A stretch of DNA of 63,179 nucleotides, counting the filler, from Vezdaea acicularis (taxonomy: Eukaryota), in the NCBI GenBank assembly GCA_026025075.1. It is 3 parts of 3 records of this genome, joined end to end, with 100 filler letters (N's around TTAATTAATTAA, not from the genome) between each part and the next. Parts side by side here need not be neighbours in the genome. Positions count along the whole stretch, not along the records: positions 44,934 to 63,179 come from JAPEUI010000205.1; 2 more parts are not named here. One strand, given 5' to 3'. Each line of letters opens with the position of its first letter. Position 1 is the stretch's first letter. The notes under the pieces are model-generated. The model did not search any database, was not told where the DNA came from, and saw only the letters and a list, made by a program, of their open reading frames with translations. Positions 3,261 through 62,301 of this stretch are shown here, piece by piece. A program made the position numbers and the translations under genes.

Positions 3261-6070
3261 CGTAACGCGAACAAGTGGTGCCCCACGTGAGGAAGTGGAA
3301 AAAGGCACGTGAGATGGGGGATTTTTGTGTCATGTTAGGGGGGGTTAGGGTGGGTTCAAGATGAGGACGTTTTTGGATCGCGGGTGTCCCGCAGGTGAGC
3401 GAGGGGGACCGTCTGCTAGCAGAGAACAAACTCCTAACGCGAAAACCTCCTTCTCACGTGATAGAGAGGGGAGAGCACGTGAGAGGCGAGTTTTTACGTT
3501 GCGTTTGGGGGGGGGGGGGTATGGATCGTTCGGGGCCCGCAGGCGAACCGCAGGAGTCCCACAGGCTAGTGGGCTTTCGAAGCGGTTGACAAAATTGATG
3601 GCGCATAAGCGAACAGTGGGTATGTTTACCCATCGGCGTGCGTTACTCTTAGCATTTCCCAGATCGTTGGCAATCCATAACAATTACTCTTAGTATGAGC
3701 TTGATAGTATCACGTCTTGGTTTTCTTTGAGGTATCATGCTCTGGGCTATGCGTACGACCTGTTCAGGCCGTTTGGGGCCTTCAAGCGTCTAGCATTTGG
3801 CTACTGGGGAGCCTTCGCTTATGCGCCATCAATTTTGTCAACCGCTTCGTTTGTTAGCTGAGGGATGATTGCACCACGAAAAGTACGATTCACGTGATAG
3901 GGGGAGAAGAGCACGTGAGAGATATGGATTTCGTGTTGCGTTGGGGGGTATATTAGTCGCGCGCATGATACTCGAGACGCGAAAAGTCTGGTTCACGTGA
4001 TAGGAGGGAGAAAGCACGTGGGGGGTGGAGTTTTGCGTTGCATTCTCGAAGCGAATAGGGCAGAATTCTTTTAGTCGTACGTCACGCCAGGGCTGGCGCC
4101 CAACGATTGCGACGCGAAAATCATCCATTCACGTGATAAAAGCGGAGAATCACGTGGAAAGATGGATTTTGCGTTGCATTCTCGAAGCGAGTAGGGCCAC
4201 AAAGCAGCAAGGCACGCCGCGCGGTAAATGCGCGATGGCAAATGCATGATCGAGACGCGAAAAGTTGCTTCTCACGTGAGCTTTGTGGAGAAGCACGTGA
4301 GGTGGTGGTTTTCGCGTTGCATTTTGAGGCAACGCCCCTAAACGTGCGCGACGATGGCCCGGGCGCAGGCGGCACGCACGGTCATGGGGGCACGAGTCCG
4401 GGTAATTGAAACGCGAAAAGGGGTTTCTCACGTGAGCAAGGGGGGAGAGCACGTGAGAGGGTTGTTTTCGCGTTGCATCCTCATGCGCAGTGGGTTACAT
4501 GGGAGTTGCATGATCCTACGTGGGTTGCATTACTCCAACGTGGGTTGCTTCCAGGGTATGCCGCAGCGGGCTCCCCGCAGTGTCCCCGCAAGCGCCCCCG
4601 CACAGGCATGATAGTCGTAACGCGAAAACCTTCTCATCATGTGAATGTGAGGGAAGGGCACGTGAGGACGGGGTTTTTGTGTTGCGTCAGTGACCGTCAA
4701 CAGGAAGGCATTATGGGATGGATCGCAGGCGTGGCCGCAGGGGAGCCGCTACGCTTGTCGAGAGGATGGTTATCGGGACGTGGAAAGTTGTGACTCACGT
4801 GATAGAATCAGTAGAGCACGTGAGAGTGAACTTTTTGCGTTGCAGGTTTGGCATTGAGATAGGGCCGTCAAAGATGAGGGCATTTACGGATCGCAGGGGA
4901 GCCGCAGGAGAGCCGCAGGAGCCCCCGGCCCTGAGCTGCTTCACGACGTCTGGAAACCGCAACGTAAAAAGTGATCTATCACGTGATAAACAGGATAAGG
5001 CACGTGAAATGGTAATTTTTGCGTTGCATCCTCAAAGGAGCCAACGCCCAATGCATGCAGTGCCTGATCGGCAAAAACATCGCAACGCGAAAAAGGGCCG
5101 ATCACGTGTAAAAGAGCAATATTCACGTGAGGGAGGAGTTTTTGTGTCACGGTAGTGATTGTGGAGGCGAGGGTATTTATGGATCGCAGCGGTCCCGCAG
5201 GGGAGCCGCCGGGGAAGCCATAGGGGGATGGATCGCAAGGGGGATCGCAGGCGTCCCGCAGTGGGTCGCGCAGGGCAGCCGCCATGCTCGTCGGGAGAAT
5301 GATCGTAACGCGGAAAGTCTTTGATCACCTGAGAGGGAGGGAAGAGCACGTAAGGGGACGGTTCGTTACGTTGTGTCGCTGACCGTCGATATGAGGGCAT
5401 TATGGATCGCAGGCGTGCCGCAAGGGTTGCGCAAGGGAGCCGCAATCCCCGTCGGGATGCGGGTCGTGATGCAAAAAGTGATGCATCACGTGAGAAAGTG
5501 GAACGGCACGTGGGGAGGTGGCTTTCGTGTTGCGTTGATAACAGTCAAGGTGAGGGTATTTTGGGAAAGTATTTTGGATCGCAGGGGAGCCGCAGATGTC
5601 CCGCAGGTGACTGCTGGTGGAGGGTGACCGTAACGCGAAAACTCAGTCATCACGGGATATCAGGGGGTGCGCACGTGAGAAGGTGATTTTCGCGTTGTGT
5701 TCAAGATGAGGGGGTTATAGGTCGCAGGGGAGCCGCAGGCGTCCCGCAAGGCGGTGACGACTGCTAGCAAAGAATGAACGCAACACAAAAACCATAGTCA
5801 CGTGATATGGGAGGACGGACACGTTGTGTTAGGGAGGGTCGAGATGAGGGGATTTTAAATAGCAGGCGTGCCGCAGGGAAGTCTATCGGAATCGATGATC
5901 GTAACGCGAAAAGTCATAGCTCACGTGAGAAAGGAGAATAGCACGTGGGATTGAGGTTTTTGCGTTGCGTCTTCGTGCGTGTAAACGCATGCAGGCATCA
6001 ATCAAATTTATGCAACGATGAATTGAATGTCTCACGTGAGATCACGTTGACCTGGAGATTCGGCGTTGCA
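3261..6070 (+). repeat. Array of ~16 quasi-palindromic ~71-bp double-CACGTG cores with variable linkers (array 1)
   Basis: Cores start near 3261, 3435, 3871, 3973, 4109, 4251, 4408, 4616, 4774, 4958, 5081, 5304, 5466, 5629, 5779, 5900, plus a degenerate one at ~6011; consensus CGYAACGCGAAAA-N-TCACGTGA-N-GCACGTG-N-TTTTGCGTTGC. Confidence 0.9.
3578..3849 (+). mobile_element. MITE copy 1 (272 bp, perfect 36-bp TIR, TSD TTT), inserted in array 1
   Basis: CGAAGCGGTTGACAAAATTGATGGCGCATAAGCGAA at 3578 and its exact reverse complement ending at 3849; TTT on both flanks; homologous copies at 29024 and 32730. Confidence 0.9.
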
Positions 6071-56870: not shown

Positions 56871-57327
56871 TCAATCGCCATCCCCCTGCCTCTCCTTCTC
56901 CCTTATAGCTGTCATCAGCTCATAAAGCTGCCCTAACTGTTGATCTGCACCGTCGTCAGTTTCATTACACCTATTGAAGTCCAACCCAAGAGACAGAAGC
57001 TTTACCACTCATCTTATCAATCTTTCCCCTATCAAGCGTTTCCCCCTTCCAACTATCTCCCTCAAGCTTCTGCGCATACATCTGCCATTCAGTCAAGAAC
57101 CCAATAATATGCACCGGATTCTCCACCGTCTTATGCGCACGGAATTCGCTCTTCACGTACTCATCCCCCAGAAGCCGCATTTCTTTGGGCAGTTTATGTC
57201 GATGCGCGCGTAGCAATCTTCTGTAGAGCAGAAGGGGTGGAAGGAGGGCCATTGGAGCGGGTTTGAACCCAGATGTCGAGCCCGCGGCAGTAGGCATTGC
57301 CATTAGGGCACGGATTGTGAGATGCAT
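56871..57327 (-). CDS. SDH7: Succinate dehydrogenase assembly factor 3 (LYR family); intron 56945-57005
   Basis: LLPPLLLYRRLLRAHR, LGDEYVKSEFRAHK, HIIGFLTEWQMY, MS/DQQLGQLYELM. Confidence 0.92.
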
Positions 57328-57507
57328 AGTTGTGAATATCCAACTTAGAAAGACAACAGGAACACGTATGGAAAGCTACAGTGTACTCATTTGTAGGACT
57401 TCGACTTGATATAGTCGATTAAGTCATCGGCCGAGATTCCCCATATATTTTGGATGGACTAAAAAGCGAAGCGCAAATATCACTATCTTTCGTCCTGCTC
57501 CCCTATC

Positions 57508-58880
57508 TGCAATGCATAATCCATCTCGCCACGTGCGAAGTGGCCTTCATCACATGACTTTCACAATTCTGCGTTACATAAACCGTAACAGCGCTGTCAA
57601 TCGGAGGCGGAGGCACCAGTACACCAAATCGGGGCGTAAGTGTATACACCATAAGGGCCGTGACGGTTTGCGAATCATGCAACGCCATATCCTCCATATC
57701 ACGTGCCCAATTGTTCTCTCACGTGAATCGTTCACTTCTACGTTGCATCACGCGGTTAACAAAATAACCCGCACACCGTACGGGTCAAAAGAGGCAGTTT
57801 TCGCTTAGAAGCAAGGTACTTCTCCACCTAAATTTGCTGGTAAGGTACCTCGCTAAGCCCTTGGTGTGCGGGTTTTTTTGATAACCGCGTGGCATATCCA
57901 TGAAGCATGTCTCCATTTCCTTGAGGGATATCTCTCTGCCCAACACCACAGCAGGGCGTAAAGCTTTGCCCAACACCATATAGGAGCATATGCAGCATCA
58001 TGCGATTCCCGACTCCATCTCGTGCAACGTACAAGTCGTCTAATCACGTGTGATCTAGTCTTCTCACGTGGGCAGCTCACTTATATGTTGCATAAATATG
58101 AGGCATATCCTGTGTACCTTGCGGGATATTTCTCTGCCCAACACCACATCGGGGCATATGCCACACCCAAGATTCCCAAATTCTCTCCCTCCTGCAACGT
58201 ATAAGTCGTCAAATCACGCAGATACTCAGCTTCATCACGTGGGTATTTCACTTGTACATTGCATACGTTCCTAGAATCGGCATGCACTGGCTACTCGATT
58301 ACACCTAAACTGGGCGTAAGTCAAAATAGCCCCATGGAACGGCGTTCCACCTCTTCCCTGCAACGCCAAATCCTCATTTCAGGTGCACAACCGCGAAGTC
58401 ACCTGGCATGGCATATCCTTTCCCCTAAATCATGAGACATTCGATTTTTGCATTGCATAAATGCCTGGTTTGCGGCCAGATCCTGCATCCTCCACACCAA
58501 AGTCGGGCGTAAGCCTCCACAGCGCCGGAGCCGGCATCGCATGAAGCAAGTCGCCGCCGGGTCCGTCTCCTGCAATACTCAATCTCACAAACGACGTGCT
58601 TGACCGTCTTTATCACATGACATTTCCACTTCTGTGTCTCGATGAAAATTGCACTTCTGATTACTAACTTAGCTGACTGAGGGGCGTCACCCAAACTGCA
58701 ACACTAAAACCTTCCATCCATGTGCCTTGTCATTTTCGTCACACGATGCTTTCATTTTTGTGTCTCGATAAAAACATCTCAACGGCATAGGGAGCAGACC
58801 GGGGCAACAGTCGCCCAAGCTGCAATACTAAACCCTCCCCTCGCGTGCCTGGCCATCTGTTTATTTCATTGCTTTCATCC
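57508..58880 (-). repeat. Second, more degenerate array of the double-CACGTG core, in reverse orientation (array 2)
   Basis: Cores at 57508, 57678, 58023, 58193, 58359, 58571, 58697, 58821: TGCAAC/T..CACGTG..CAC(G/A)TG..TTYTRYGTTRCA or TTYTGTGTCTCGA, with the same ~22/21-bp spacing as array 1. Confidence 0.8.
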
Positions 58881-59269
58881 GTTTCATCCTGATTGGACTT
58901 GCTATCAACTTCTTCCATAATATGTCTAGACGTCACGAATCCACCTTCTCATGATCACGGCGCCTGCGCTATGCTTGCGCTAAACATCTGATCACGTGAC
59001 CTAGCATAGACAAATTGCAAGGAAGCGCTGAGGTTTAGGTCTCCAGTATTCAATCTACAATATCAGCTATGGCATCGCCCTGCCATCAGTATAGATACCT
59101 CTATTGACTACTGCATCATTGCGATACTACGCATCGTCCCTGAGATCATCCTGCGCGCTGCCTGCTCCTTTGCCGCATGAAGCTTAGCCTGCTCCCTCCT
59201 GTCGCCTACACTCTCACACTAGATCTCAGACACCTACTGAACTGGTTCGGGACGGTTTAAGGATGTAGC

Positions 59270-60987: not shown

Positions 60988-61185
60988 TTACATTTAGGCG
61001 ATTGGTATTTGTACACGGGTGTGTAGTATTTACACCACCCCCCCCCCATAATTAGCGACCCGATAGTAGAGCACCTCCTACGTGAAGATATCGAAATAAC
61101 CCATGCAACACGCTCTTTATCACCCCGTTCGAAAGCCCATTGCCATCCCCCACCCTAGGGCCACCGCCTGACACCCTAGTGACCA

Positions 61186-62301
61186 ATGGGGGGCGCCAAA
61201 TGGCCGTCCGTGGGCGTCCAGCCACAAAACATGTACGACCATGCCACGCAACTCATCGCCGACGTAGAAGCCCTAGAGATAGGCATAAACGCAGAGCAGG
61301 GAAAGCCACGAAAGCAGATACCAGCCGAATCGATCCTACCCTTCCTCCGAAGCTGCAAGAAGCCCGCAGAGAAGGCAAAAGATCAGCCATCCTTAAAGGA
61401 CTTCTCAGCCCAGCTGGAAGCGAGCTTCAGGGACGTTAAATCGATAAAGGACGACATCAAAGTCGTCAAAAACACCGTCACCAACACCCCGCTCCCGCAA
61501 CGCCAGGGCTCACAGCCTTCATCATACGCCAAAGCCGCCGCTTGGGCCGCCAACGCCGCATCAGCTAGCCCCCCGCTCTCAGGCATCATCCCCACGTCAA
61601 ATCTGACCAGCACAGCAACAGAGAAGGAAAGAGTAGTGATCATAAAACTGGCAGACCCAGACCAGATAGAAGCGGCCAGAGGACAGCAACCCGCCAACCT
61701 CAAAATACAGATCGACACAATCATGAAACAGAGCTCCAACACCCGCATCCGAAACACAAAGATAACCGCCGCCAAACAGCTTAAAAGCGGAGACCTGGCG
61801 ACATACACAGCTATGCCAGAAGGAAACTACTACCTGAAACGATACGCAGACGATTGGGTGAAAGGTCTGGGCCCACACGCATACATCCCCATCCCGACAT
61901 ACGAAGTCATCATGCATGGCATCCGTTTGGACACAATAGACATGGCAAAACAGACGGAGATGGCGATGGAGCTCAAGCAATGGAGCAATCATGTCATACC
62001 TAACGCGGAGATCAAATACATGGGATGGCTCACAAAGGCAGGTGGCTCCAAGAAAGTCTCATCGATGATTATCGAATTCGCAGACGCGGAGGACGCCTCA
62101 ATGCTAGCAAGAATGATGCTCATGTATTGCTCTTTTCTATTGGATCCGCCCATATCGGATTTTACGATCTACCAGGAAATCTGTCGATTAGATGCGCTTC
62201 ACTGTCGTGGGATCTGCCCATGTGTGACCTTTTCTTATAGGATATTACCTAAAGTTATCCGGCAAGCCTGCCGCTTCTGCGTTATAGGCGATCCCCCATG
62301 A
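61186..62301 (+). mobile_element. Truncated ORF1 (gag-like) of a fungal non-LTR (Tad1-like) retrotransposon
   Basis: SYAKAAA, ERVVIIKL, AAKQLKSGDL, TYEVIMHGI, YMGWL, SSMIIEF motifs; homology breaks near 62100 before the expected zinc knuckle; no RT ORF follows. Confidence 0.7.

Follow-up and report, generated by a model that had tools for sequence, protein, structure and literature searches.

The window, that is, the whole stretch of DNA analysed here (63,179 nucleotides), consists of three contigs joined by N spacers and was taken from a genome of 18.9 Mb in 315 contigs. Introns and gene content identify the source as a fungus, and its genes suggest a filamentous-type ascomycete. The array of repeats under study (array 2) occupies kilobases 12.6–13.9 of contig C119 (18.2 kb); upstream of it, housekeeping genes (coding for a helicase, a proteasome beta subunit, NUP159, Ccdc124, and a LYR-family protein) are closely packed. 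Between the array and the contig end, repeat-like sequence and tandem repeats were found. The segment beside the array (58932–59197) occurs with different flanks in other runs and is likely another mobile element; a frame of 372 codons (61183–62301) is retroelement gag-like by eye (no Pfam match), and the contig end (62366–63161) is occupied by tandem arrays of 66 and 17 bp.

Table 1. Position of the cores and neighboring features (window coordinates unless a locus is named; scores are those of the profile built from array 1, and shuffles are the number, of 200, scoring as high).
Feature	Position	Strand	Details	Score (bits)	Shuffles
Core 1	57508–57577	−	arm 57508, boxes 57530 (CACGTG) and 57551 (CACATG), far arm	17.3	0
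Core 2	57678–57747	−	boxes 57700 and 57720, both perfect	25.7	0
Core 3	58023–58092	−	boxes 58045 and 58065, both perfect	11.4	4
Core 4	58193–58263	−	box 58215 decayed (CACGCA), box 58236 perfect	4.1	33
Core 5, lengthened	58359–58458	−	boxes 58380 and 58400, third box-like word 58431 (31 bp on), far arm	8.0	0
Core 6	58571–58641	−	boxes 58593 and 58614; arm variant GTCTCG at 58636	14.4	0
Core 7	58697–58767	−	boxes 58719 and 58740, both decayed; arm variant GTCTCG at 58762	22.9	0
Half core 8	58821–58847	−	arm and single decayed box 58842	6.9	
Linker motif copies of array 2	57621–58513	+	at 57621, 57943, 58141, 58301, 58494; weaker at 57646, 57973		
Array 1 (contig C99)	3256–6075	+	17 cores, type-A linker		
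LYR-family gene frame	56971–57375	−	array 2 begins ∼0.2 kb upstream of the frame		
143-bp MITE	57749–57891	.	unrelated to cores; inserted where core 2 ends; inverted ends of 29 bp that start with CAC; 97% copy on C24		
Second MITE family	∼3575–3850; L016 4753–4991 (C33 array)		3-bp duplication read by eye		

Each core of the family spans ∼70 bp and is built as arm–CACGTG–CACGTG–inverted arm. Array 2 (57508–58847) comprises seven full cores and one half core, oriented opposite to array 1 (Table 1). A preliminary description of the sequence had reported about eight reversed cores with arm-to-box distances of 21–22 bp and box-to-box distances of 20–21 bp, and its coordinates and distances all held on recheck: in unit order, arm and box are 22, 22, 22, 22, 21, 22, 22, and 21 bp apart, and the two boxes of the seven full cores 21, 20, 20, 21, 20, 21, and 21 bp. 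The arm variant noted in that description is indeed common to both arrays (GTCTCG in cores 6 and 7; CGAGAC at 3973 and 4251 in array 1), and the arrays do lie on separate contigs. The ACACC linker motif, which had been proposed for five places, is exact at all but 57943, where the last letter differs, and has no further exact occurrence within the window.

Array 2 is a more decayed copy than array 1, and a young MITE has inserted into it. A perfect CACGTG is left in only 6 of its 15 boxes, CANNTG in 11, and 11 of 90 box letters have changed, compared with 5 of 192 for array 1 (p = 0.004, Fisher test). Still, its boxes are better kept than its spacers (pairwise identity 0.77–0.83 versus 0.33–0.47). 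The MITE is bordered by a 4-bp duplication (57745–57748 and 57892–57895) and has nine other matches in the genome, none of them near a core; CAC..GTG ends and 4-bp duplications were present in all three copies checked (window, L002, and L005), and the ends fit the CMCT clade as characterized in PMC12730594. In contigs from other studies, the same MITE has different flanking sequence; run X1 covers only the MITE and a flank, and run X7 matched nothing in the window.

Whether array 2 belongs to the same family as array 1 was assessed with a profile built from array 1 only, against which the full array-2 cores were scored, all of them being found on the minus strand. The outcome named in the preliminary description as fatal to its view, namely array-2 cores scoring no better than shuffled CACGTG-containing DNA, did not occur. 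The seven cores scored between 25.7 and 4.1 bits (Table 1), as compared with at most 6.6 bits for 47 genuine CACGTG sites of contig C1. Five of them exceeded every one of 200 shuffles in which both boxes were held in place; the remaining two, at 58023 and at 58193 (placed through its similarity to core 3), were matched by 4 and 33 shuffles, respectively. When 5,000 perfect box pairs were planted in random sequence, 22 reached 15 bits and one reached 20 bits, as compared with 25.6, 22.9, and 17.3 bits for the three best array-2 cores.

Genome-wide, no fewer than 34 loci, distributed over 26 contigs, belong to the family, and 19 of these loci hold more than one unit. The count is a lower bound derived from pattern searches of the genome and profile scoring of the loci and of C1. 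The exact box–box–arm pattern yielded 53 matches (0 for the reversed control), and exact box pairs 19–22 bp apart were found 61 times (once for the reversed-pattern control). Among the box pairs listed at this distance, 47 of 50 fell within profile-positive loci, and the remaining 11 pairs equal the number counted in the loci on C260, C261, C262, C268, and C311. Pairs on C46 and C76 were excluded for lack of a profile match, and weak ones on C120 and C53 (14–15 bits) were left out of the count. The catalogue is probably near complete because, when 400 kb of C1 (424 kb in all) were scanned with the profile, only the four loci already known (at 151, 210, 251, and 283 kb) and one 7-bit fragment were returned, the reversed sequence returning none. 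Viral contigs (0 matches to the core pattern) and plasmid collections did not contain the element, and a bacterial promoter scan remained at chance level. The 15 matches to the core pattern in metagenome contigs all represent one ∼520-bp LTR-like repeat without a left arm (≤18 bits), which was counted as one chance match. No description of such an element was found in a full-text literature search, beyond whose reach lie most subscription papers and the repeat databases. The family apparently is an undescribed dispersed repeat, and its sequence bears what looks like a strong signature of protein binding.

The linkers are subfamily-specific. A profile of the array-1 linker matched 10 other contigs (E < 0.05), array 2 not being among them; array 1 and the arrays on these contigs are referred to as type A (11 multi-unit arrays on 11 different contigs). 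Array 2, C261, C135, C57, and the 151-kb locus of C1 each have linkers of their own, and the profile of the array-2 linker gave no other match below E = 3 among the scanned loci. All 14 genome-wide matches to a linker-only pattern were in known arrays (control, 0). The idea of locally evolving linkers put forward in the preliminary description consequently applies to array 2, the linker of which is private, but not to array 1, the linker of which recurs on 10 other contigs, indicating that whole core-plus-linker blocks have spread. Type-A blocks end alike: AGCGCTC stands close to the 5′ terminus, and at the 3′ terminus a short stem-loop is followed by GAGCGC. The type-A array at C1:283k contains an internal head-to-tail junction. 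In a joint tree of 66 cores, which was built on few columns, left 39 of its 63 branches open, and was otherwise star-like, the four array-2 cores included formed a single clade (99/97), and some first and last, also terminal and penultimate, units of type-A arrays paired across contigs. The blocks were thus dispersed first and then grew in tandem locally; the spread of the family looks mobile-element-like, with local tandem growth added. A fixed nucleosome period finds no support, as unit periods varied between 103 and 223 bp (median ∼150, plus five longer gaps).

Several other repeats adjoin or interrupt the arrays. A second MITE family, with inverted ends starting CGAAGCGG and a 3-bp duplication apparent by eye, has inserted among the cores of array 1 and of the C33 array. 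Two type-A arrays are adjoined by a further repeat family (L019 2990–4650 and L026 1–600), which contains tandem as well as inverted copies within itself. Loci L022, L023, and L024 (C160 and C225) consist of repeated segments of several kilobases containing a Ulp1-like frame (Peptidase_C48 at E 0.02; no usable Atlas match for the protein), a 29-bp tandem tract, and, upstream, a core. The copies of this segment differ in the core region by inverted duplications of ∼100 and ∼330 bp, which suggests template switching at the cores.

What is retained within the cores are the boxes and their distance. In all 14 linker-anchored units, a small set itself selected for a good linker, the boxes kept 161 of 168 letters (seven differences); the spacers of the same units were 0.32–0.56 identical (0.27–0.43 from composition alone) and the 10 bases preceding the linker 0.59. 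The CpG was kept in 124 of 130 cases in the box and in 65 of 101 in the arm. As type-A copies at different loci are at most ∼80% identical, the boxes were presumably kept after dispersal. Among 80 cores parsed with box-to-box distances restricted to 19–22 bp (a few weak cores being misparsed), the distance was 21 bp in 52 and 20 bp in 21. Box pairs at 6–18 bp occurred 16 times genome-wide (control, 10), six of them at exactly 10 bp, and three new loci with 10-bp pairs all carried arms (25–31 bits) and are full members. At 23–51 bp, pairs were near background (19 versus 13 in the control). Although none of 17 fetched pairs at other spacings exceeded 15 bits (one weak pair had 14.7 bits), one member with perfect boxes and arms has a spacing of 31 bp (C1:210k) and one weak member a spacing of 14 bp; the phase of the spacing rests mainly on 10 and 20–21 bp. 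The earlier view that the family is dispersed and old and has retained its core is supported by the number of loci (at least 34, on 26 contigs), by the limited identity between type-A loci, and by boxes far better kept than spacers. That the core has a function, as also proposed, is a fair reading of the sequences of the family, for which array 2, with its higher proportion of changed box letters, is the weaker witness.

The cores could also be the sites of a structured non-coding RNA or of a single-stranded DNA hairpin (attC- or REP-like), and some cores do fold well (4 of 8 tested, z −3.5 to −5.0); the arms also covary weakly among non-type-A cores (p = 0.003). However, the left and right spacers within a core were not complementary (0.293 versus 0.283 when permuted, p = 0.27, 75 cores), the arms covaried neither in 45 type-A cores (p = 0.56) nor within loci (p = 0.65), three of six array-2 cores folded no better than shuffles, and Rfam had no match in the window. 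The lack of spacer complementarity and of arm covariation in type A points to proteins on one face of duplex DNA rather than to a hairpin or RNA, a reading that is thereby largely refuted and has hardly any credibility left. Bacterial REP/BIME mosaics resemble the family in layout, being short arrays of palindromic units between genes in which each subfamily has linkers of its own; here, however, the host is eukaryotic, hairpin covariation is absent, and no HUH transposase was identified. tRNA genes were not detected in 33 loci or the window. A core on C250 (L025, ∼4940–5010) abuts text that by eye resembles the 5′ part of a tRNA gene, although neither ARAGORN nor Rfam gives a match there.

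The genome was found to contain seven bHLH genes, one of which has yeast Cbf1 as its best solved relative (E 6e-5); others we take, by eye, to be SREBP-like and Pho4-like. The word CACGTG cannot separate Cbf1 from the Pho4-like or SREBP-like genes. The arm word presumably resembles the yeast SBF/MBF site; its likeness to an RSS nonamer was dismissed because the orientation is wrong. Nine loci have Pfam-named genes on both sides (four convergent, three tandem, and two divergent), and these genes are unrelated. Unrelated neighbors, and the position of four of the nine loci between two gene ends, argue against a promoter element of a pathway. Retention of boxes and spacing while the spacers drift would fit duplex DNA bound by bHLH dimers.

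The explanation that we favor, to which we give about an even chance, is that the family is a mobile-element-derived chromatin platform bound by the host. The core would be a four-site putative protein-binding module on double-stranded DNA, in which two CACGTG E-boxes may lie on one face of the helix, one, two, or three turns apart, flanked ∼2 turns out by two inverted A-tract arms. The family would first have spread as a non-autonomous mobile element; host bHLH dimers, most likely of the Cbf1 relative, would occupy the boxes, and a second protein would bind the arms. Copies would now be kept in place by selection as chromatin-organizing platforms (nucleosome-free or boundary sites), probably not tied to the promoters of any one pathway, and array 2 would represent an old subfamily copy that expanded locally and is less strongly constrained. 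The decaying boxes of array 2 (11 of 90) and the toleration of a MITE count against the platform reading, as does the discovery of most loci through perfect boxes, and the accessible part of PMC1488866 lends no support to phase-dependent pairs of Cbf1 sites.

It is possible, though doubtful, that the cores are merely relics of a family of non-autonomous DNA transposons, in which boxes and arms served mobilization, only intact copies were copied, and no present host role exists. The common ends and the head-to-tail junction of type-A blocks, the pairing of terminal and penultimate units across contigs, the unrelated neighbor genes, and the presence of three cores in the repeated segment beside the Ulp1-like frame agree with this. 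Yet, nine single cores had 4-, 5-, 6-, and 8-bp repeats in 7, 2, 0, and 0 cases (7.0, 3.1, 0.9, and 0.1 expected by chance), which is at or below chance for target-site duplications, and no young copies exist across the type-A loci, so that neutral decay should have struck boxes and spacers alike. Searches of the genome for NDC10_II and for a tyrosine recombinase with a GCR1_C domain also found no match, a weak argument because the control queries were silent as well. A solo-LTR or TRIM (TG..CA ends) was ruled out for want of target duplications. The element agrees in full with none of the known families with which it was compared. With non-autonomous Helentrons (HINE/DINE-1; PMC4067079), it has in common the lack of coding capacity and, in type A, variable central tandem repeats; the 3′ stem-loop is a less certain parallel, as a stem of 6–7 pairs stands where it would be expected in five of ten type-A ends. 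The TT-rich flanks and the sub-terminal inverted repeat of 11–15 bp were, however, absent from the places stated there (type-A flanks are not T-rich and have only a 7-bp word in common), and array 2 has no defined ends and no stem-loop that was seen. The 6-bp word AGCGCT, at both type-A ends and at the head-to-tail junction, may recall CryptonF elements (PMC3212892), as a circular intermediate would give this arrangement; but the C68 copy alone has the exact word at each end, the others being degenerate, no recombinase/GCR1_C partner was found (the weak negative above), and ends of this type are missing from array 2. Like the cores, MITEs derived from DDE transposons (with CMCT clade ends as in PMC12730594) are short, quasi-palindromic, and dispersed, but the cores have no target-site duplications, their arms seem not to match (inverted, but only 0.63 alike, no better than permuted within loci; the C160 copies alone come near to a perfect match), and the spacing inside them is constrained.

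The Cbf1-type boxes also call to mind centromeres. Type-A arrays, one per chromosome, might be Cbf1-marked centromeres or kinetochore-nucleating sites defined by their sequence, with array 2 and the remaining subfamilies as older or orphan sites; this we consider unlikely. Eleven multi-unit type-A arrays on 11 separate contigs would fit such a role, as 322 telomere-repeat matches (∼17 per end among the 100 matches listed) amount to ∼19 ends and hence to 10 or more chromosomes, and the genome encodes a Cbf1 relative. Yeast point and proto-point centromeres, according to PMC13017519, are likewise short non-coding loci with Cbf1-type sites (CDEI) that may derive from mobile-element motifs; the boxes and the bHLH protein with Cbf1 as its nearest solved relative would correspond to these on sequence grounds. 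In contrast to them, the present family has paired boxes in arrays, no AT-rich CDEII (the most AT-rich 80-bp window reaches 63.8% in array 1 and 62.5% in array 2), and no detected CDEIII/Ndc10 (the same weak negative as above), and the host genome is of the filamentous ascomycete type. Four loci within 132 kb on C1 argue against one-per-chromosome centromeres for the whole family, as do two loci on each of five other contigs and, overall, at least 34 loci versus ∼19 telomere ends. Furthermore, the loci show no GC anomaly, no GC trough surrounds the type-A arrays (0.519 versus 0.508, p = 0.16), arrays sit in tight gaps between housekeeping genes, and array 2 falls outside type A. That mobile-repeat-derived, helically phased arrays opened an independent second route to Cbf1-marked centromeres outside the budding yeasts, with the 11 type-A arrays as centromeres and array 2 as a retired one, is a proposal of low probability. 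Replication origins or origin enhancers with iteron-like sites appear very unlikely, even though they would be in keeping with repeats in helical phase that occupy intergenic gaps whatever the gene orientation, with inverted and tandem duplications arising locally around cores, and with a spacing of 32–59 kb on part of C1: ordinary origins are expected to be denser than ∼34 loci per 18.9 Mb, none is present in C1 at 1–151 or 284–400 kb, and GC skew, at 10-kb resolution, does not shift where the C1 loci lie.

If the boxes are bound as the favored platform explanation has it, the family would provide ∼90 natural copies of a single protein-binding module that differ in spacing and in degree of decay, and would illustrate how a mobile repeat becomes an element of the host chromosome. 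The ∼34 loci are a short list for centromere, origin, and boundary roles, and sequence-defined elements of this kind were not found for this fungal group in the literature as far as accessible to the search. Even if only a transposon relic, the family is still an unclassified one. Pieces of array 2 were present in DNA contigs from two other studies, X2 (58047–58293 and 58424–58531) and X3 (58353–58467 and 58560–58708), with 13 differences in 246 bases and 20 in ∼149 (5–13% overall). These contigs are short, of low depth, and do not bridge to the flanking LYR gene; the pieces are probably orthologous because the array-2 linker is single-locus in this genome. L084 (C60, ∼19,940) holds a near-perfect palindrome of ∼70 bp with CACGTG in both arms and without family arms. 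In L028 (2700–3690, C261), which is built of 235-bp tandem units, the second arm after the two boxes is direct, not inverted.
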